Below, piece by piece: positions 10,647-19,557 of a stretch of 64,000 bases of DNA. This DNA comes from a virus. Taxonomy: Duplodnaviria; Caudoviricetes. The stretch lies in the IMG/VR virus record IMGVR_UViG_3300031867_000008, positions 76,957 to 140,956 of that record. One strand, given 5' to 3'. The position numbers and the translations under genes were made by a program. Under the pieces are notes generated by a model that was not told the DNA's origin, ran no database searches, and saw only the letters and a program-made list of their open reading frames with translations. The stretch's first letter is position 1, and every line of letters starts with the position of its first letter.

Positions 10647-11330
10647 TCACATTCCTCTCTTAATTCTTTTTTGAGCAATCTCAAAATAGCTTTCGTCAAT
10701 TTCTACACCGATGAAATCACGGTTTAATTCAATAGCTGCAATTCCAGTTGAGCCAATTCCCATAAAAGGGTCAAGTACAATTTCATTTTCCAAAGATGAA
10801 TTGTCGATCAGTATTTTCATTAACTCAACTGGCTTTTCAGTATTGTGAAGATTTTGTCCATCCTCACCCTTAGTCTTTTTATTTGGTATTGAAAGAATAT
10901 CCGAAGTTCCACAATGGTTTATTTTCTTACCCTTGCCTTTTCGGAAGAAAAGTATATACTCAAAAGAACTCATGTAGTAATGTCCCATTATCTTATTACC
11001 TTTGCTCCAAATAAGGCTTTTGACAAACTTGAAACCATTTTGAGTAAACACGTTCAACATATGTATTAAGTTGATATGATTGCACATTACATAACAATGT
11101 GAACCATCTTTCAATACTCTGTAAAATTCAGGAGCATAAGATTCACAATCTATATTGTTATAGGTAAAGACTTTGCCTATCATAAATTCTTTTGATTGTA
11201 ACATTCCACCACTATTTCCTGCGTTTCCTCTGGAAGTAACTGGATAGGGGGGGTCAGTTACGATAAGGTCAACACTGTTATTAGGAATACTTTTTATTAT
11301 TTTTAGACAATTATCTTGAAATAATTTAAT
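10647..11330 (-). CDS. Site-specific DNA methyltransferase (N4/N6, beta class) with a probable ATT start
   Basis: The frame extends 42 codons upstream of the track ORF (IKLFQDNCLK...SVDLIVTDPPY) to ATT 11330, with an in-frame TAA two codons earlier; HNTEKPV and VLDPFMGIGSTG downstream. Confidence 0.88.
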   Translation of the reverse strand: MKLFQDNCLKIIKSIPNNSVDLIVTDPPYPVTSRGNAGNSGGMLQSKEFMIGKVFTYNNIDCESYAPEFYRVLKDGSHCYVMCNHINLIHMLNVFTQNGFKFVKSLIWSKGNKIMGHYYMSSFEYILFFRKGKGKKINHCGTSDILSIPNKKTKGEDGQNLHNTEKPVELMKILIDNSSLENEIVLDPFMGIGSTGIAAIELNRDFIGVEIDESYFEIAQKRIKRGM

Positions 11331-11350
11331 TTCTTATCACTCACTTTCTT

Positions 11351-12247
11351 TTAATAATTTGTAATCAGCACTTCTTTAGTTTTAAACTCTTTGTTTTTAG
11401 CTTGATAATTACAGTTATCATAATTGTAGTTCATCGGAATTAGATTATAGTCATACTTCTTAATCCATTCGATTAGAATATCATTAGTCTCGCCCTTATG
11501 TTCGATAACATTTGATAATGCGAATCTTGTGCCATAATTAGTTAGTTCGTTGAGAATATATAGCAAGGTTCTATCATCATTTTCAGACCAACCTCTAAAA
11601 CCTCTCTTACCATCATTATAAGCTGCACAGCCAAGTCTGTAAGGTGGATCACAATAAATGAAACTGTTGGAGTATTTATCAAGAATAGAGTAATCAAAGT
11701 CCACGAAATCTTGTTTTGAAAAATTGATGTTATGATTATTTAATAACTGATGGAATGCTATTAGTCCATCTTCATAAATCTCTCTGTAATAATATCTATC
11801 TTTACCAAAAGAGCTATTATACTCATGATTATTATTAAATCTAATTTGACGATTAAAGCTATAACAAGTTAAAAGAAATAAATCAATCGGACTTCTGTTA
11901 TTAGATTTGTTATACCAATTCCTATATTCTATAAACCCTTGCTCGTTCATTTTGCATAATTGAAATTTGACAATTTGTGAATGAATATAATCTCTTATCT
12001 CACATATATCATTTCGTTGTAAATATTCATAAAGCTCTATTATATGATAATTTATGTCATTCGCATAGGTGATTTTTATGCTTGGCAATTCATAATTGAC
12101 TGCAACATCACAACCACCACAAAACAAATCAACAAAACAATCTGTATCTTTTGGAAAATGTTCAAAAAGTTTGTCTAAGAGTTTATACTTATTTCCTATA
12201 TAATTCATGGGAGATTTAACATATGGTTTTGTCTTTTTATCTTTCAT
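11351..12247 (-). CDS. DNA adenine methyltransferase (Dam/D12 class)
   Basis: KSPMNYIGNKYKLL, FVDLFCGG, YCDPPY, EVLITNY. Confidence 0.92.
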   Translation of the reverse strand: MKDKKTKPYVKSPMNYIGNKYKLLDKLFEHFPKDTDCFVDLFCGGCDVAVNYELPSIKITYANDINYHIIELYEYLQRNDICEIRDYIHSQIVKFQLCKMNEQGFIEYRNWYNKSNNRSPIDLFLLTCYSFNRQIRFNNNHEYNSSFGKDRYYYREIYEDGLIAFHQLLNNHNINFSKQDFVDFDYSILDKYSNSFIYCDPPYRLGCAAYNDGKRGFRGWSENDDRTLLYILNELTNYGTRFALSNVIEHKGETNDILIEWIKKYDYNLIPMNYNYDNCNYQAKNKEFKTKEVLITNY

Positions 12248-12765
12248 ACACCACTCTCCTTAATTTTCAAATCCTCCCTTAATACTTCATAGATCACTGA
12301 ATCATGATACTTACCGTTGAACCAAGCTACTCTACACAGAGTACCAACTTTTCTGCCACCAAACTTCTTAATAAACCTATCGTACAGTTTAATAGCAGGA
12401 TTGTCGGCAAATGCAAAGAACTCCATTCGCTGCGCTCCATGCTCAAACATGGTTTTGATATTTGAAAGCACGTCAATTAGAAAAGGTATGTTGTTCTCGT
12501 TGAATCCTATAAGCCCAAAGTTCCTGAGCGACTTATTACCATCTTCGTAGTTGTAGGTGAAATAACCATCGACTTCTCCTTCGTTGTTTAAGTGAACGAA
12601 GTCTCTGCGCCAATAAGCGTTGTCGGGTATCTCAAACTCATTTCTGTCGTTTGCAAAATACCACTGATATTTCGGATCATACCAACAAGAAATCATCTTG
12701 CGTTTAAGTTCTTCTTTGTAAAGCTGTGCAGGCATGAGCAATTCTACCAACTCCTTACTGTACAT
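12244..12765 (-). CDS. GNAT-family acetyltransferase-like protein
   Basis: NPAIKLY...GGRKVG......NGKYHDSVIYEVL, a RimJ/RimL-like C-terminus. Confidence 0.65.
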   Translation of the reverse strand: MYSKELVELLMPAQLYKEELKRKMISCWYDPKYQWYFANDRNEFEIPDNAYWRRDFVHLNNEGEVDGYFTYNYEDGNKSLRNFGLIGFNENNIPFLIDVLSNIKTMFEHGAQRMEFFAFADNPAIKLYDRFIKKFGGRKVGTLCRVAWFNGKYHDSVIYEVLREDLKIKESGV

Positions 12766-12901: not shown

Positions 12902-13126
12902 TTAATTTCTAAGATGATGGTCTACAATTAAGTAAATCAATAATATCACCACGACTAACACCAAGGGAATCCATATTGGTGCAAGCACCCATAACCAAGA
13001 CCATTTTATGACCCCACAGAGTTTAAGTGCAATAAACACAATCGTAAGCAAACCACAAAATCCTATACCGCCTGATTGGGTAGACTTGTTGTTGTTATTA
13101 TTATCAGCCATTTTATCTCCTTTCAC
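12902..13126 (-). CDS. Small phage membrane protein
   Basis: GGIGFCGLLTIVFIALKL.GVI.WSWLWVLAPIW; start probably at ATG 13111. Confidence 0.75.
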   Translation of the reverse strand: MKGDKMADNNNNNKSTQSGGIGFCGLLTIVFIALKLCGVIKWSWLWVLAPIWIPLVLVVVILLIYLIVDHHLRN

Positions 13127-14411
13127 TATACTTTATACCTCAAAAAGTCCTCGCCATAAATTTCATTGACTGAATCAAACACATACCGCAATCCGAGTCC
13201 ATGAGAATTGCTTGTCCACAATTTTTTCGGATTCCAGTTCTTCCATTCTCCATCGTACTCAGGAGCATTTGGATCATAATAGGGATTGTCTATCCATTCT
13301 CCACCTTTTAAACAGAAGTCATATTGTTTTGGGTGAGTTCTTGCAAGTGCTTGTATTCTTGTTTCGCCTTTTTCTAAATGGACACCTAGTAGGCAGAAGA
13401 TGCAACCTGACCTTCTTACACCAGTTGTTTCTAACAATCCCTTTTCATTCTCTACAATATCGCCATAAACCGAACATATTTGAATATTGTATCTTCTTAT
13501 GTATTCAAGAATATCCTGTTCAGTCCAAAAACTTAATGGCTGAGAACTTGGTTTCTTTCCCTCAAAAGCGTTACAACCTGTTCTTATCCATGATTGTCTA
13601 CGCATAAGACTTTCTTCTGCCATAGTGCCAAGATAAGGTTTGTTATGACTTGCTCTCTGATAAATACCGATAGGAGATTTTTTCATAACATCACAACATT
13701 TGCCACTTATAAGAAAAGGTGTGTAAACCAAAGGCAACCATTTCTTCTTGTTAAACTTTGACTTAACTTTAACATCGTCATAGCTACCCAGAATCCCAAG
13801 GAGCTGTTTTCGTCTGTAATTCTCCTGCACTACATGAGTCTGTACTGTTGTTACAGTTGTCGATTCTTCTGCCAAGCAACTCTTGTCTCTTTCTGATTGC
13901 TGTCTTGAATTGCTCTGATGGGGGGGGGGATTTGGTAGTAACGCTTGTCGAGTAGTTCTTCTCTCCTGTGTTTCGTTTCCTTGAATCCTCTCTCTGCCCC
14001 CCCCTCAGAGGTATTGCTATTTCGTATTCTTCTTGCATAATAAATAGCATTAGCAACTTCTTTACTGATTAAAGGATAACCATAATTTCTTATGACGTTT
14101 ACAAAATTCATCTTAGGAGTCACAAACGTTGCGTTCTTACTTCTTGCGAATTTCTGAATTTCGGGATATTCAAGCCCTGTGTTGCTAAATACAACAGGAA
14201 GTTCAAACGTAGGGTCAATGGCGGCAAGAGTTTTCTTTACAAGGTCAAGAAGAACTGTGCTGTCCTTGCCGCCCGAGAACGATAGATAAACTTGACCCTC
14301 CCAAAAATTGAACCATTCTATAATTCTTGCTTGTGTAATTGCTATCTTGCGGTCAAGTGGCAAGACTTGCAGTTCTTTTAGTCGAGCTGCATCATGAATG
14401 TCGATTGGCAT
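13126..14411 (-). CDS. PAPS-reductase-domain protein, split by a frameshift at homopolymer tracts (N-part 13851-14411, C-part 13126-13875)
   Basis: N-part has the SFSGGKDSTVL PP-loop and NTGLEYPE; C-part has CCDVMKK, PLSFWTEQDIL, RSGCIFC. One extra base in the G8 tract (13997-14004) or C10 tract (13920-13929) of the coding strand gives a 428-aa fusion. Confidence 0.85.
13920..13929. repeat. G10 homopolymer (C10 on the coding strand)
   Basis: Read directly from the sequence. Confidence 0.9.
13997..14004. repeat. C8 homopolymer (G8 on the coding strand)
   Basis: Read directly from the sequence. Confidence 0.9.
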
Positions 14412-14906
14412 TTATTCATCTCCTTCTCTATCATCTATTTCTTTAAAACCTGTTTTGAATTTAACATTTCTAAAGCAATGTGTATTAACACTCGAAACCC
14501 ATAATAGGAAATTAGAATCGTTAAATAAACTATCAGACATAAGAATGTTTGCTGCTTTCTTACCTTTAAACTGTAAGGGATTTGGGTTTTCACTTGAATA
14601 CCAATGAATTTGAATATCTCTGTGACGATAAATTTCTTCTTTATTGTTTGGCGGCTCTGGAATTAACCAATCTATATAGCGAATATTAGGGAAATTTGCG
14701 ACTCTATATTCAAATCGTCTTTTCTCTAATATAGAAATGATTGATTCTATTACATTGTAAAAGTTGTCAAAATCGTTGTTCTTATCAATGTACACAATAA
14801 AGTTATCACCGAGTTCTTGGCAATAATTATCTATTAACAATGAAATATTATCTTTTGATATTCGATAATATCCATGCTCTTCGTTTATAAATGGTTGCGC
14901 ATTCAT
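14412..14906 (-). CDS. Hypothetical protein
   Basis: 164-aa ORF with AGGAG RBS. Confidence 0.7.
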   Translation of the reverse strand: MNAQPFINEEHGYYRISKDNISLLIDNYCQELGDNFIVYIDKNNDFDNFYNVIESIISILEKRRFEYRVANFPNIRYIDWLIPEPPNNKEEIYRHRDIQIHWYSSENPNPLQFKGKKAANILMSDSLFNDSNFLLWVSSVNTHCFRNVKFKTGFKEIDDREGDE

Positions 14907-14991
14907 AGCCTAATCTCCTATTTGTTCTTTTTACGTTTCTCCATCTCGCAAACCACATCTGCATAGAATTTATTCCATGTAGGTTTGTCTA

Positions 14992-15107
14992 TGAACTACT
15001 CACGAGCTAAAGCTCAATGAGCTTCTTGCTTCCTCGTCCTCGTAACCTACTAACTCCACAAGCGTATAAGTTCGGACAGTTCCTGCCCTACTTTATCATT
15101 ATCTTAT
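14992..15107 (-). ncRNA. IS200/IS605 right end / TnpB omega(re)RNA scaffold
   Basis: Directly 3' of tnpB: GGGCAGGAACTGTCC hairpin ... GAAGCTCATTGAGCTTTAGCTCGTGAGTAGTTCA subterminal hairpin, typical of IS605 right ends. The putative guide follows (TAGACAAACCTACATGG). Confidence 0.75.
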
Positions 15108-16214
15108 TTATCCTGCTACCCTTAATCCTTCATAAAGAATATTAACAGCAGCATTTACATCTCTATCATGATGCTCACCACAATTAGGACAAATCCACTC
15201 TCTTACAGACAAGTCTTTAGTCTCTGTATTCTTATAGCCACAGCAGTTGCACAACTGCGAACTTGGATAGAATTTATCAATTTGCACCACCTGTTTACCA
15301 TACCATTCAGCCTTGTAATACAACATTCTAACAAACTCACTCCAAGAAACATCACTGATAGATTTTGCAAGATTATGATTCTTCATCATATTACTTACTT
15401 GTAAATCTTCTAAGCAGATAATATCATAAGTCCTAATCAGTTCTGTACTCAGCTTCTGTAAGAAATCCTTCCTCTGATTAGTAACCTTCTCCCAAGCCCT
15501 CGCAAATCTCACTCTTGCCTTATCACGATTCTTACTACCCTTTGACTTTCGAGATAGTTGTCTCTGTAATTTAACAAGTTTCTTTTCAGACTTTGTGAGG
15601 TATTTAGGATTGGGTATCTTCTGTCCATAAGAAGTGATAGCAAATTCTTTTAAACCTAAGTCTATGCCTACTGAACAACCGGTTTTGGGTAAAGGTTGTT
15701 CATCATCTTTTTCAACAAGAACTGAAACATAATATTTACCGCTTGAAGTTTGACTGATCGTGGCTGACTTTATCTTGCCCATTATGTTAGGGATTCCATG
15801 AGCTTTAACCCATTTGAATTTGGGGAGTTTTATTTTGCGGTTATCAAAGTCTATTTCTATATTTGTACCAGTTATATTAGTTTTATAAGACTTTTTACTT
15901 ACCTTCTTGCTCTTGAATTTAGGAAATCCAGTATGTTCCTTAAAAAACTTTTGATAAGCAGAATCAAGATTATTCACCGCGTTTTGTAAAGAAAATTTAT
16001 CAACTTCTTTAAGCCATAAATATTCTTGTTTTAACACTCTATTAACATAATTCACTATATCAAATTTAGATAAAGAAATATTCTCATTCTTATACTTATC
16101 AATTCGATAAGCTAAACATTGATTATAAACAAACCTCACACAACCGAAAGTTTTCTGTAATAATATTTCCTGTTCTTTATTAGGGTAAAGTCTAAACTTA
16201 TAGCTTTTATACAT
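15108..16214 (-). CDS. tnpB: RNA-guided endonuclease TnpB (IS200/IS605 family); no tnpA
   Basis: [11 protein letters not shown]...[12 protein letters not shown], RuvC GIDLG / LEDL / DRDVNAA all intact, Zn finger CxxC...CxxC. Confidence 0.95.
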
Positions 16215-16242
16215 TTGCTATCACTTCACTTTATTTTCCCAC

Positions 16243-16797
16243 TCATTCGACTAACGCCCTTTCGTATTTATGTAGTTCTCTCAGTTCCAGCTTACTCGGC
16301 AGAAAATCTCTACAAAAGTAAGCTGAACCAAAAGCTGTTCCCTCAGTAACGTGCTTCATATCACCGTTCATAAAGAACCCGACTCTTGAATCGAAGCAGA
16401 GCATTTGGATTTCATTATTAAATATCTTGAACCTTGACTTTCCTTGAATACTATTGCAAGGGAGCAATAAGGCAAATGGTTTATTGAAATCAAACGCTCT
16501 TTCGAGAACTTTATCTTTCTTACTGAATGGTGGGTTGCTTATCATGATGTCCCAATGATCGGGTTCGCATTTGAAAAAATCTTTGCCTTCGTCAATGTGA
16601 GAGTGAACAACTCTCATGCCCCCCCCCCCTGTGAGGACTTGAACAAATGCGGAATATTCTTTATCGAATGGACACCAAATAATTTTGGACTTGTCTGTGA
16701 GAAATTCAAGGAGAGGGTCTACGGCATAGAAAGGTGTGTACATTTCATCACCCGAACTTGTTCTATTAGACGTTAAGTAACCTTTATTCAACGGCAT
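16243..16797 (-). CDS. Putative adenine DNA methyltransferase (NPPF) with an in-frame G11 tract
   Basis: DEMYTP, IWCPFD, GKDFF, ISNPPFS; the GGGG peptide is encoded by G11 (C11 at 16619-16629). Confidence 0.8.
   Translation of the reverse strand: MPLNKGYLTSNRTSSGDEMYTPFYAVDPLLEFLTDKSKIIWCPFDKEYSAFVQVLTGGGGMRVVHSHIDEGKDFFKCEPDHWDIMISNPPFSKKDKVLERAFDFNKPFALLLPCNSIQGKSRFKIFNNEIQMLCFDSRVGFFMNGDMKHVTEGTAFGSAYFCRDFLPSKLELRELHKYERALVE
16619..16629. repeat. C11 homopolymer (G11 on the coding strand)
   Basis: Read directly from the sequence. Confidence 0.9.
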
Positions 16798-17080
16798 TAT
16801 TACTTCCTTTCTCAATTCCTATTGCGTTTTCTTTCTCCCAATCCCATTTATCTTCATTCCATCCAGAACGTTGTCTTAACCCTAAAGCTGTAAGGTTGAT
16901 TACATTATCACTCATACGATAATCGTCATAATAGGTGTCCACCAAAACTTTTGCATTTCCTTTGAACTTCGTTACAACACATTCTTCAAAAGAAGCCCGA
17001 TAGCCACGAGAATTTCTGCCAGAGAAAAGGATCGTGTCACCAACGCTTATTTCATTACCGAGATAATCTTTCATCATCAA
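16784..17080 (-). CDS. Hypothetical protein
   Basis: KDYLGNEISVGD phage-type N-terminus; AAGGGG RBS. Confidence 0.7.
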   Translation of the reverse strand: MMMKDYLGNEISVGDTILFSGRNSRGYRASFEECVVTKFKGNAKVLVDTYYDDYRMSDNVINLTALGLRQRSGWNEDKWDWEKENAIGIEKGSNNAVE

Positions 17081-17233
17081 CCATCCCCTTTATGATAAAA
17101 CCTCGATTTTATAGGTGTTTATTGTCCATTTTTATGGACAATAAAGCTAAATTTTAGCAATTTTTAAAATATTCGCTAAATAACTGTACAATTATTTGTA
17201 CTATAAATCATTTAACCATCAACTATTTTTGGC

Positions 17234-17500
17234 TCACGCCCCCCCTTGCATTGTGCTAAGAGTAGGAGCAAGATAGTCTTTATCATACACCCTACGGATT
17301 TGTTCTTTACCTTTAATATCAAGCATACCCATTACAACAATTTTTGATTCGGTGTTACCACCACAGCCAATACCATGCAGAGTAGGAGAAATACCTTCTT
17401 GTGAATAAACTCTATGTCTTGATTCAATCCATTCAGGTTTGTCAAGGCTTCCCATTGTTTCAATTTCATTTGCGTGAACACTATTATTTTTAGTATTCAC
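17234..17500 (-). CDS. C5-methyltransferase target-recognition-like modules (two), ending at a G7 tract
   Basis: RVYSQEGISPTLHG and RVYDKDYLAPTLSTMQGG; changing G7 (17239-17245) to G6 or G9 would continue as REPKIVDG. Confidence 0.7.
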   Translation of the reverse strand: MNTKNNSVHANEIETMGSLDKPEWIESRHRVYSQEGISPTLHGIGCGGNTESKIVVMGMLDIKGKEQIRRVYDKDYLAPTLSTMQGGA

Positions 17501-17742
17501 GCTTGCTGAAAATTTTCGTCAGAACACTTGTAATTAGGATTATACTGACTGCGATATAAGTGTTCAAATATTAACTCAACACAGTTACTCACGAGCGAAT
17601 TTCCTGCTTGTTTGTACATCTGTGTATCTGACATTCCTATGTTTTTCACTTTCTGAATATCTTCATCTGAAACACTCATAAGTCTTAAACATTCTGTTGG
17701 CGTAAGTTTTCTAATTCTAAATTTCTTCTTATCAATACTCAT
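17497..17742 (-). CDS. C5-cytosine methyltransferase C-terminal fragment (motifs IX-X)
   Basis: FRIRKLTPTECLRLM, YKQAGNS. Confidence 0.88.
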   Translation of the reverse strand: MSIDKKKFRIRKLTPTECLRLMSVSDEDIQKVKNIGMSDTQMYKQAGNSLVSNCVELIFEHLYRSQYNPNYKCSDENFQQA

Positions 17743-17746
17743 TGGC

Positions 17747-17890
17747 TTATTGCCCCCCCCCCGTTGCGGTTACTAAAGTTGGTGCTATATTCTGTGGATC
17801 ATATACAGCTCCATGTCCAGCTTTAAAGGCGTTTTCACATTGACTGTCATATATTGTTCCAAGAACATTAGGTTTACTTCTGTTAGTCAT
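17747..17890 (-). CDS. C5-methyltransferase TRD-like module ending at a G10 tract
   Basis: GAVYDPQNIAPTLVTATGGG; AAGGA RBS before ATG 17890. Removing one G from G10 (17753-17762) fuses it in frame to motifs IX-X. Confidence 0.7.
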   Translation of the reverse strand: MTNRSKPNVLGTIYDSQCENAFKAGHGAVYDPQNIAPTLVTATGGGQ

Positions 17891-17928
17891 TGTTATCCTT
17901 AACCCTCTCAATTCTATACAAACAACAA

Positions 17929-18144
17929 TTACCACTTGCCATTATGGTAGGACAAATCCCCCCCCACTTCCATATCACACAGAACGATTATTTTAGGTTG
18001 ATTTTTATAATAAGTACTTAATACAGTCGCTGATACTCCAAGCGCAGACAACACTTCTGAGTGTTGATGAATTTTATTAGAATCAGGAATCAATCTGCCT
18101 ATCAACATGGGTTTATGAGTTTCGCTTTTCTGTTTTAGATTCAA
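17929..18144 (-). CDS. C5-methyltransferase TRD-like module with a G8 tract
   Basis: GVSATVLSTYYKNQPKI; GGAGTGA RBS before TTG; G8 at 17958-17965. Confidence 0.65.
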   Translation of the reverse strand: MNLKQKSETHKPMLIGRLIPDSNKIHQHSEVLSALGVSATVLSTYYKNQPKIIVLCDMEVGGDLSYHNGKW

Positions 18145-18571
18145 TAGTTATCACTCCTGTCATTGATTGATTTCCAAAACCACGCCAATCTCTTGCTTCT
18201 AAAGTAGCTGCATAATCAAGTTTCTTATTAAACTGGGTTGCATAATTACTTAGTAACACACCCTGATTAGTTGTTGAACTCAACAACACCGGTGCCGTCT
18301 CGTCTAAAATTTGAAATTCCTGCATCATATCTTGCCTTGATGCAGTTTGCTCGGTCAATTGCTCTTGGTTCGTTAAGTGTGAGGTCGATTGTAATTGCTC
18401 TCTCTCTCTCTCAATCAAAAGATTATCTTTTTGAACAGTAGAAATTGTATTTGTCATACCATCATTTCTCGGAACAGCCTCACGATAATCATTAAAGCCA
18501 TGCTTTATCTTGCCGCTTTCATAGTCTTTTCTTAGCGACTTACCCTGTTCGGTGCGCTGCATTTTAAACAC
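18113..18571 (-). CDS. C5-methyltransferase TRD-like modules with a (GA)7G tract
   Basis: TNTISTVQKDNLL and AATLEARDWRGFGNQ modules; dinucleotide tract at 18398-18412. Confidence 0.7.
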   Translation of the reverse strand: MFKMQRTEQGKSLRKDYESGKIKHGFNDYREAVPRNDGMTNTISTVQKDNLLIEREREQLQSTSHLTNQEQLTEQTASRQDMMQEFQILDETAPVLLSSTTNQGVLLSNYATQFNKKLDYAATLEARDWRGFGNQSMTGVITIESKTEKRNS

Positions 18572-19557
18572 ATACTATCCTTTTGAACAGTAGTCAATGC
18601 GTTTGCGACACTTTCGGTTCTTACTTCAATATTCTGCTCAGTAGAATTATCATCGGTATATCTACCTCTCGAAACTACAGGGTAATCTTCCTCTGATAAA
18701 GTTCCGTTAGCAACAAGTTCATCAATTAACTTGTCAGCTTTTTCGTTATTTATGTAATACTTTTCATCTACTACATCATCAAGAACATCTTTGAGTCTAA
18801 GACCATTATCGAAAGGCTTTGGGAAGGTCATTTTGCCTGTGTCTATATCCTTGCGAATTGCTATTCCAAATACTCTTTCGCGATTTTGAGGAACGCCGCA
18901 GTTCTTAGCATTGAGAACTTCGTAATAGGTATTATAATCAAGCTCATTAAGCACCTCTATTAGTTTCTGAAAATCAGGCATAAATTTCTTTGAAATTAAG
19001 TTTTTGACATTTTCAAAAAATAAATACTTCGGAGCTTTATTATCGGTAACAGCTTTTCTTAACAATCGAACTTGTTGCCACAACAATGACGATCTTGTTC
19101 CGCTACCCTCTGATAAGCCCTTCATTGCTCCCGCGACAGAAATATCCGTGCATGGCCACGAAACTGTCCATAAATCAGCATAAGGTAATTCCTCAATACT
19201 GCTTATGTCTCCAAGATTGTTGGATAACTTCATAGCAAGCCAATACTTTTCAAGTTCCTTACTTTTACTTTTTGTTTTCTTGTTCCAATCGTAAGGCTTG
19301 TTCTTCTTGAAATCAAATCCTATATTTCTATCTAATAGGTCTTGCGCCATTTGTTCTCTACTCGGATAATCGGAATAATTCTCGATCATTTCGTTAGTCA
19401 AACCGTTATGTATAGCCGCATATGAAACCATTACATCTTTATCAATATCAGAAGTACAATTTACTGTTAGGTCAAACAATCCCGTATTCATAATTCCTCG
19501 CTCTTGGTTTCCTAACCCTGAGAAAAGAACATTTGCTGACAATTTAACCTTTTCCAA
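18532..19557 (-). CDS. dcm: C5-cytosine DNA methyltransferase, catalytic N-terminal part (motifs I-VIII plus first TRD)
   Basis: LFSGLG, SWPCTDIS.AG (catalytic PC), FENVKNL, PQNRERVF, ANALTTVQKD; lacks motifs IX-X. Confidence 0.92.
   Translation of the reverse strand: MEKVKLSANVLFSGLGNQERGIMNTGLFDLTVNCTSDIDKDVMVSYAAIHNGLTNEMIENYSDYPSREQMAQDLLDRNIGFDFKKNKPYDWNKKTKSKSKELEKYWLAMKLSNNLGDISSIEELPYADLWTVSWPCTDISVAGAMKGLSEGSGTRSSLLWQQVRLLRKAVTDNKAPKYLFFENVKNLISKKFMPDFQKLIEVLNELDYNTYYEVLNAKNCGVPQNRERVFGIAIRKDIDTGKMTFPKPFDNGLRLKDVLDDVVDEKYYINNEKADKLIDELVANGTLSEEDYPVVSRGRYTDDNSTEQNIEVRTESVANALTTVQKDSMCLKCSAPNRVSR

Follow-up and report, generated by a model that had tools for sequence, protein, structure and literature searches.

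Simple-sequence repeats in the DNA-modification genes of a gut phage as probable contingency loci

Introduction

The multispecific C5 DNA methyltransferases of Bacillus phages (M.SPRI, M.Phi3TI, M.Rho11sI and M.H2I) combine one core with several short recognition modules in a row, and M.AquI is made as two polypeptides from overlapping open reading frames (ORFs). Here, we analyze a 64,000-nucleotide stretch of phage DNA (hereafter the window; positions 76,957 to 140,956 of the IMG/VR record IMGVR_UViG_3300031867_000008, Duplodnaviria; Caudoviricetes), in which long G/C runs and a (GA)7 repeat lie within DNA-modification genes, a C5 methyltransferase among them. We conclude that these runs and the (GA)7 are very probably hypermutable simple-sequence contingency loci kept by selection in the phage genes for DNA modification. 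The phase-variable methyltransferases of bacterial phasevarions are of the Type III mod, Type I hsdM/hsdS and Type IIG cj0031 kinds (PMC5909438, PMC7383803, PMC6265453, PMC4889913). Contingency loci of phages have only recently been described, as short A-tracts in laboratory coliphages and as poly-G in receptor genes of Campylobacter phages. According to the preprint on phage T2 (Gomez, Barrick and Waters, bioRxiv 10.1101/2025.10.21.683753), an A-tract in agt toggles DNA glucosylation between two restriction threats, and the T2-type loci of that account are short A/T runs of at least six bases found across all gene classes. The Campylobacter phage poly-G tracts are placed in receptor-binding genes (Sorensen et al. 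2021, Cell Rep 35:109214, as cited in PMC12823448).

The source record is a complete virus of 140,956 bp with direct terminal repeats and 35.5% G+C, and the window is its last 64 kb. Public runs that hold the window sequence are bovine and goat gut metagenomes, and we take the phage to be one of the cattle rumen. The coding strand of the genes discussed is the minus strand throughout. Comparison of the region by megablast with phages that are cultured or deposited returned no match, and a protein search against the same phages recovered relatives of less than 60% identity only. The comparisons below draw on two related phage genomes taken whole, G1 (139.5 kb) and G2 (112 kb, whose sequence is L001), on a 41-kb contig from a sister sample of that of G2 (L308), and on 78 further C5 methyltransferase loci (830 kb), mostly from human-gut phages of 55-60 kb.

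Long G/C tracts cluster in DNA-modification genes

A regular-expression scan for G/C runs of at least seven bases found seven in the window (G7 at 11247, G10 at 13920, C8 at 13997, C11 at 16619, C7 at 17239, C10 at 17753 and C8 at 17958, in window letters), and a scan of the same kind found (CT)7 at 18398-18411, which is (GA)7 on the coding strand; no run of exactly six G or C was present in the window. An earlier note on this DNA, made by eye, had listed these seven runs and the (GA)7, and the scan matches it exactly; its placing of every one of them inside methyltransferase or PAPS-reductase-like genes is also borne out. Its broader wording, that the tracts are confined to DNA-modification genes, stands for the window and only nearly so for the genome, which outside the window adds two further runs of at least seven: a C7 at genome 9483, inside a short ORF of unknown function, and a G14 at genome 50738. 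The G14 (genome 50738-50751), 26.2 kb ahead of the window and longer than any other tract of this phage, is found directly 3′ of a small minus-strand gene in the region of a tape-measure intron and abuts the ATG of a plus-strand, 43-codon hydrophobic ORF.

The modification genes make up 5.1% of the genome, yet hold seven of its nine runs of at least seven (binomial P = 3e-8), and the six G/C runs of at least eight in 141 kb compare with about 0.1-0.5 expected under analytic Markov models of orders 1-3. We considered a higher G+C content of these genes as the cause of the tracts and rejected it, because their G+C is that of the genome (35.7% versus 35.5%). Three of the seven modification genes, two of the D12 class and one N6/N4 enzyme, are free of tracts, so the rule is that tracts lie in modification genes and not the reverse.

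The two related genomes display the same clustering. Six of the seven G/C runs of at least seven in G1 are in modification genes, its tract-bearing genes being a D12 methyltransferase (at the FxGxG motif), a phrog_757 methyltransferase, the orthologue of the NPPF methyltransferase described below, a PAPS-reductase-like gene (in the linker) and a second phrog_799 methyltransferase; all six runs of G2 are likewise placed, five of them belonging to the part of the C5 enzyme that holds its recognition modules and the sixth to a D12 methyltransferase. The binomial P is about 1e-8 to 1e-9 for G1 and for G2, with modification genes accounting for 3-5% of the three related genomes. Across the 78 further loci, 60 of 62 runs fall in the C5 methyltransferase recognition region. 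The whole-genome scan by gene class, which had been set out beforehand as a check, hence finds tracts that are not evenly spread and that gather in modification genes here and in both relatives. The tracts also run counter to codon usage: in long ORFs, GGG accounts for 6.6% of glycine codons and CCC for 13% of proline codons, and runs of such rare codons oppose the usage of the genome. Together with the differing repeat types that occupy one and the same site (see below), this supports the earlier suggestion that the tracts are selected as such.

Tract lengths differ between closely related phages

Lengths were compared on contigs only, with those of other runs placed on the window: X1, from the probable source sample, and X2, X3 and X4. 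X2 and X3 both lack one base of the 13920 tract (C9 on the coding strand) and three of the 16619 tract, and have five extra dinucleotide units beside the 13997 tract. The X1 contig has two bases more at 17753 (G12, a fusing length). For contigs of X4, the comparison table places a gap of 3 nt somewhere in 17670-17917 and another of 2 nt somewhere in 18343-18564, which are only suggestive of G7 and (GA)6, respectively. The modification cluster of X2 and X3 differs in other respects as well: the D12 methyltransferase gene (window 11348-12265) is swapped for 811 other bases, and both the 164-aa (amino acid) ORF and the TnpB (IS605 OrfB) element (window 14425-14928 and 14992-16253) are missing, so the gene content of this cluster is also strain-variable.

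G2 and L308 are 97.3% identical overall, with the first 1.5 kb identical, and all four of the poly-G tracts that they share differ in length (9/8, 7/6, 9/6 and 7/13); besides the tracts, the only indel is one of 3 nt in a diverged module. The L308 contig stops within its last tract, and another contig of that sample starts directly past it. One G1 tract is present at both contig ends, once as G9 and once, in the repeated copy of the sequence, as G16. Both of these ends (L172:118-126 and L178:19494-19509) are inside one D12 methyltransferase gene at the G9/G16 poly-G, and this tract is probably where assembly of the genome, either circular or terminally redundant, was interrupted. Among the human-gut loci, those with identical 200-nt flanks on both sides carry differing repeat numbers at all four repeats of the C5 locus. 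Invariant lengths, which the earlier note had named as telling against its proposal, were accordingly not found: lengths differ among near-identical phages and among metagenome runs.

Two of these observations could be taken to mean that the tracts are an artefact of assembly or a by-product of mere Gly- or Pro-rich peptide motifs, namely that a length differs between two assemblies of probably one sample and that several tracts encode GGG or PPP peptides. We regard this as exceedingly improbable and as largely refuted, given that separate studies and habitats yield these tracts again, each within unique flanks, that the relative L003 writes the GGGG peptide with GGT codons, that GGG is so small a share of the glycine codons, and that non-homopolymer repeats, which Illumina reads well, behave alike. 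Since the tracts lie almost only in genes that mark DNA and their lengths change between near-identical phages, they are most likely mutational switches by which the marking of phage DNA varies in the face of bacterial restriction. The window shows what is expected of contingency loci: runs of G7-G11 and a (GA)7 within four genes, of a length at which slippage is expected (about seven G/C or more), lengths polymorphic among close relatives, and an effect of length on the frame or the product.

A C5 methyltransferase divided among small module ORFs

The densest set of tracts is found in a C5 methyltransferase locus with the following features, from the 5′ end of the coding strand:

18532..19557, minus strand: C5 core (motifs I-VIII) and first recognition module; PF00145 at 3e-42
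18113..18571, minus strand: ORF that joins modules M2 and M4 (the latter of TLEARDWRG type) across a linker without conservation; frame 1 accounts for the substitutions in both modules, not for those in the linker
18398..18411, minus strand: putative (GA)7 switch, a junction repeat with other repeat types in relatives
18267..18398, minus strand: alternative module M3 (ANCIKARYD type) in another frame, which (GA)6 would bring in frame; in frame in L001
17929..18144, minus strand: module ORF T_a, which has a ribosome-binding site and start of its own and ends soon after the G8; its L001 equivalent starts with GGAG and ATG
17958..17965, minus strand: G8 tract with the consensus G(n)ATTTGYCCTACC, the orthologue of "site A" in methyltransferases of human-gut phages
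17883..17957, minus strand: remainder of a module (ICPTIMASG...) in a third frame, in which its changes are 5 synonymous and 2 non-synonymous
17747..17890, minus strand: module ORF T_d (47 aa, from ORF reading) with AAGGA and ATG (17900-17888), overlapping the preceding stop codon
17753..17762, minus strand: G10 between T_d and the motif IX-X ORF; G9 or G12 would fuse the two
17497..17742, minus strand: 81-aa ORF that carries motifs IX-X and starts at an ATG of its own; PF00145 profile positions 269-322
17234..17500, minus strand: trailing ORF that lacks a catalytic motif and adds two recognition-like modules; no Pfam match
17239..17245, minus strand: G7 at the end of the trailing ORF; G6 would add the usual GGxEPKI ending

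PF00145 profile positions 38-250 and 269-322 fall on separate ORFs, and the PC, ENV, QxRxR and GNS motifs are visible. The tracts at 17239, 17753, 17958 and 18398 are situated between the ORF of motifs I-VIII and that of motifs IX-X, or directly past the latter. About nine segments resemble recognition modules, as called by short conserved motifs and by homology to the relatives L003 and L017; in more distant relatives the same modules are carried by one ORF (L003) or two (L002 and L017). Several modules in the window each begin with a ribosome-binding site and start codon overlapping the stop codon that precedes them. Judged from its sequence, the C5 enzyme appears to be put together from a core ORF, a number of small module ORFs and the 81-aa ORF of motifs IX-X. 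A genetic code in which TGA is read as Trp, as in a host of mollicute type, was tried as an explanation of the broken frames and rejected: the module ORFs mostly end in TAA, and reading through TGA gives no module-like sequence.

In the C5 locus, synonymous changes are in excess in every module when it is read in its own frame, and the shifts of frame from module to module are the same in the window and in L001; M3, for instance, has 9 synonymous to 3 non-synonymous changes in its own frame versus 1 to 11 in the frame now read (window versus L001). This synonymous excess shows purifying selection on every module, each in its own frame, and speaks against decay of the genes. Frameshifted copies are numerous, as they would be if the modification genes were dispensable and on their way to being lost, with homopolymers as the first sites of inactivating mutation. 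Such decay is very unlikely: beyond the excess that each module keeps, intact and broken forms occur side by side across wide divergence, tracts persist against the codon bias and are exchanged for other repeat types instead of being lost, and in-frame module states of the (GACA)n repeat described below number 51 versus 12, above the 2:1 neutral expectation.

Module T_a (17966-18134) is far more diverged than its flanks, at 40% versus L001, and in L302 and L308 (2400-2700) it has 46 mismatches in 296 nt between two phages otherwise about 99% identical; T_a is either a hypervariable or an exchanged module. At the 17958 site, where the window has one G8, L001 has a G7 and a G9 with an additional module of 274 bp between them. 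The absence of this module from the window, with one G8 left in its place, the divergence of T_a relative to its flanks and a G(n)CA-like context common to the tracts at module borders are all compatible with poly-G serving not as frame switches but mainly as recombination joints, that is, short homologies by which cassettes of recognition modules are deleted, duplicated or exchanged. As a replacement for length switching, this is improbable, for it leaves unexplained both the tracts in single-domain methyltransferases and in the linker of the PAPS-reductase-like gene, and length differences of a single unit where phages are nearly identical. As a second role of the same tracts, it agrees with the contingency-locus reading.

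Repeats as selectors of reading frame

The junction held by (GA)7 in the window is occupied by other repeats in other phages: G9 in L001, G8 in L308 and, in human-gut phages, (GACA)n with n = 4-23, (AGAGC)n with n = 4-13, and (CAGAG)7 or (AGCAG)10. The exact (GACA) junction is found in 106 viral contigs and 11 genome contigs, the latter including assemblies of Catenibacterium mitsuokai, and 19 contigs end in the repeat. Past the junction, the window, L001 and the gut phages share two modules in overlapping frames, of the ANCIKARYD and TLxARDY/W types. The number of (GACA) units modulo 3 determines which is read: 1 puts the second module (M4) in frame, 2 the first (M3), and 0 gives an early stop, with pure repeats of these classes in 34, 17 and 12 contigs, respectively. 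M2 and M4 of the window share one frame because the repeat is (GA)7; as predicted from the letters, (GA)7 would read through the unconserved linker into the second module, and (GA)6 would read the first.

Further repeats of the human-gut family behave similarly. Poly-G at two orthologous sites, one of them corresponding to window 17958, is commonly of both in-frame and out-of-frame length, and (ACTT)n directly before the catalytic PC motif is in frame with n = 4 in 55 loci and out of frame with n = 3 or 5 in nine; an (ACAG)n lies in the linker of the PAPS-reductase-like gene. This family (L003-L080 and L185-L301; about 55-60 kb), the host of which is possibly Catenibacterium, has up to five repeats per modification module, these being (ACTT)n, (GACA)n and two poly-G in the C5 methyltransferase and (ACAG)n in the adjacent PAPS-reductase-like gene.

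At 17753, the located tracts are 7, 10 or 13 long, all of the unfused class, and the other assembly of the source sample has 12, of the fused class. A fused protein of T_d and motifs IX-X exists as the public cluster P0006 (128 aa, 20 sequences), and many other clusters are unfused, with 79-81 aa. The unfused form may thus be one in which a split enzyme functions, and not a plain OFF state.

Upstream, a T_TTA_AAA heptamer (18562-18568) is located exactly at the overlap of the core ORF and the next module ORF, which are in a -1 relation, and about 170 nt around it are near-identical between the window and L001, with neighboring sequence differing by 10-15%. This heptamer at a -1 junction, the common frame class of lengths 7, 10 and 13 at one site, and the fact that most out-of-frame tracts equal the in-frame length plus one base (17239, 17753, 17958, 13997 and examples in G2 and G1) would suit programmed recoding, by which transcriptional slippage or +1 ribosomal frameshifting yields short and fused proteins in a fixed ratio and any change of length in the DNA is incidental. 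We consider recoding an unlikely account of the locus. Arrays of tetra- and pentanucleotides with 4-23 units at the same junction carry no recoding signal, and their repeat number sets the frame in DNA; all frame classes of DNA length are found in nature; the fused form is counted as DNA-encoded elsewhere (known here from P0006); and RNA structure, sought 3′ of the heptamer as an element of -1 frameshifting, was not found there (z = -0.28). Recoding and cassette recombination may add to slippage-driven frame switching, not replace it.

The PAPS-reductase-like gene and two further methyltransferases

A second cluster of repeats belongs to a gene related to PAPS reductases:

13126..14411, minus strand: PAPS-reductase-like (PP-loop, SGGKDS) gene with N and C domains in different frames; PF01507, phrog_424 and tblastn with L083
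13997..14004, minus strand: coding-strand G8 in the linker of the two domains, which a G7 or G10 would bring into one frame
13987..13996, minus strand: short (GA)n adjoining the G8; five more units in X2 and X3, (GA)6-12 in relatives
13920..13929, minus strand: coding-strand C10 that encodes PPP in the frame of the C domain; C9 in X2 and X3

Both halves of the gene match PF01507 above the cut-off, the SGGKDS motif is present, and phrog_424 matches too. In tblastn, the intact relative L083 aligns in two frames, the frame of the N domain passing through the G8 and that of the C domain back through the C10; as a G7 or G10 at 13997 would give a single ORF, the assembled sequence represents the OFF state. 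The gene is whole in five relatives and has a linker frameshift in six, and 10 of the 12 nearest relatives have a G/C tract in this same linker, with poly-G, poly-C, (GA)n, (AC)n or (ACAG)n as the types of repeat across relatives. The linker is of low complexity and variable in length, and fits a site where repeats expand without harm to the protein.

Two methyltransferases each hold one tract:

10647..11330, minus strand: N6/N4 (DPPY) DNA methyltransferase; 228-codon open frame with a PF01555 match at 10668-11273 free of stops
11247..11253, minus strand: C7 on the coding strand, forming both prolines of DPPY, in frame (scan and three-frame view)
16243..16815, minus strand: intact NPPF adenine-type DNA methyltransferase of 190 aa; phrog_799 at 7e-31 and a weak PF13651 match
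16619..16629, minus strand: G11 on the coding strand, encoding GGGG, in frame (ORF reading and relatives)

The NPPF tract, which the earlier note had called ON, does encode GGGG within an intact ORF, and is in frame in all five versions, at lengths of 11, 9, 8, 8 and 8. The DPPY gene has its first canonical start codon at 11204, downstream of the DPPY motif (region 11204-11330); upstream of this catalytic motif the open frame contains no ATG, GTG or TTG, and a GTG-initiated short ORF in the -1 frame stands directly upstream of the gene. As no usual start precedes the motif, an active DPPY enzyme needs an unusual start codon or a frameshift.

A proposed mechanism

We propose that slipped-strand mispairing of DNA, as the polymerase slips during phage replication, would add or remove repeat units and that each gain or loss would shift the reading frame in a heritable and reversible manner. 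In the PAPS-reductase-like gene, the shift would join or separate the two domains. In the C5 methyltransferase, it would set which small target-recognition modules join the catalytic pieces in frame: the (GA)n junction would choose between two modules in overlapping frames, and the G10 at 17753 would fuse or unfuse T_d and the motif IX-X piece, the enzyme otherwise being split into a core and pieces. Phage lineages could thereby come to differ in the sequences that they methylate. Virion DNA would be modified by enzymes from the preceding host cell, so the effect of a switch would appear one infection cycle later. The benefit would presumably be bet-hedging, as methylation shields from restriction enzymes and exposes to methylation-dependent (Type IV) nucleases. 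The data directly show where the tracts lie, that their lengths are polymorphic, how length affects the frames, that the modules are under purifying selection and that a fused form exists; we infer the slippage rate, the enzyme activities, their specificities and the fitness benefit.

Several observations weigh against this scheme or narrow it. The intron G14 lies outside modification genes, so long tracts are not strictly limited to them, and the role of the PAPS-reductase-like gene in DNA modification is assumed from its constant place beside methyltransferases and from its like repeats. Several frame changes of the C5 locus are not at repeats and occur at overlapping start and stop codons or at the T_TTA_AAA heptamer, and the single frame class of lengths 7, 10 and 13 suggests that the unfused state is functional and not OFF, or that recoding is involved. 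The signs of heterogeneity within a population are indirect and come from contigs, as G10 versus G12 for one sample, contig breaks, and G9 versus G16. Finally, assembled homopolymer lengths may be off by a base or two, which makes individual ON/OFF calls uncertain.

For some tracts, the predicted switch looks like a change of module composition and not simple ON/OFF. Tentatively, and with slightly less than even confidence, we suggest that the locus is a combinatorial switchboard and not a set of ON/OFF genes, in which a core, a motif IX-X piece and a row of recognition mini-genes are arranged so that each repeat attaches or selects a module, and a population continuously generates many methylation specificities; this design would be present in more than 100 gut and rumen phage contigs and would extend to the PAPS-reductase-like gene.

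If the contingency-locus reading is true, restriction and methylation-dependent defenses are met by a built-in, reversible variation of the phage methylome and not by a fixed set of methyltransferases, and the linking of phages to hosts by methylation is unstable. To the known phage contingency loci, this adds phages from gut and rumen in nature, with unusual repeats gathered in those genes by which a phage marks its own DNA; in the literature searched, we found no description of repeat-gated phage C5 methyltransferases. Annotation pipelines label genes of this kind as broken or split, and assemblies stop at the repeats. A three-state repeat choosing between two recognition modules in overlapping frames is, moreover, a compact design.

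Comparison with known systems

The likeness to phasevarion methyltransferases lies in the presence of mono-, tetra- or pentanucleotide repeats inside the ORF, in a frame set by repeat number and in natural strains that differ. The earlier description of this region as phasevarion-like is therefore sound insofar as it refers to phase-variable methyltransferases; the regulon that the term also implies is neither shown nor expected in a phage. Unlike in phasevarions, the genes are those of a phage and comprise orphan Type II-like C5, N6/N4 and NPPF enzymes along with a PAPS-reductase-like gene; several genes are involved, with up to four or five repeats per locus; one repeat is predicted to pick between two recognition modules in overlapping frames and not between ON and OFF; and the expected role is to protect the phage's own DNA, not to control a regulon.

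With the T2 agt and Campylobacter phage loci, the window shares phage repeat slippage as the proposed source of heritable, reversible variants, and with T2 agt a gene for DNA modification, for which T2 features a trade-off between two restriction systems. It differs from both in its long G/C runs, which go against composition and codon bias and are nearly exclusive to modification genes, and in having other repeat types too, which recur in more than 100 gut and rumen phage contigs and appear to gate individual modules.

The C5 enzyme, finally, resembles the M.SPRI group and M.AquI in having one catalytic core (motifs I-VIII and IX-X) with a series of putative recognition modules, and appears to be split as M.AquI is. 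The M.SPRI group has a single fixed ORF and M.AquI has two, in each case without repeats; the C5 locus of the window instead has shifting frames, small ORFs with starts of their own and slippery repeats between them.

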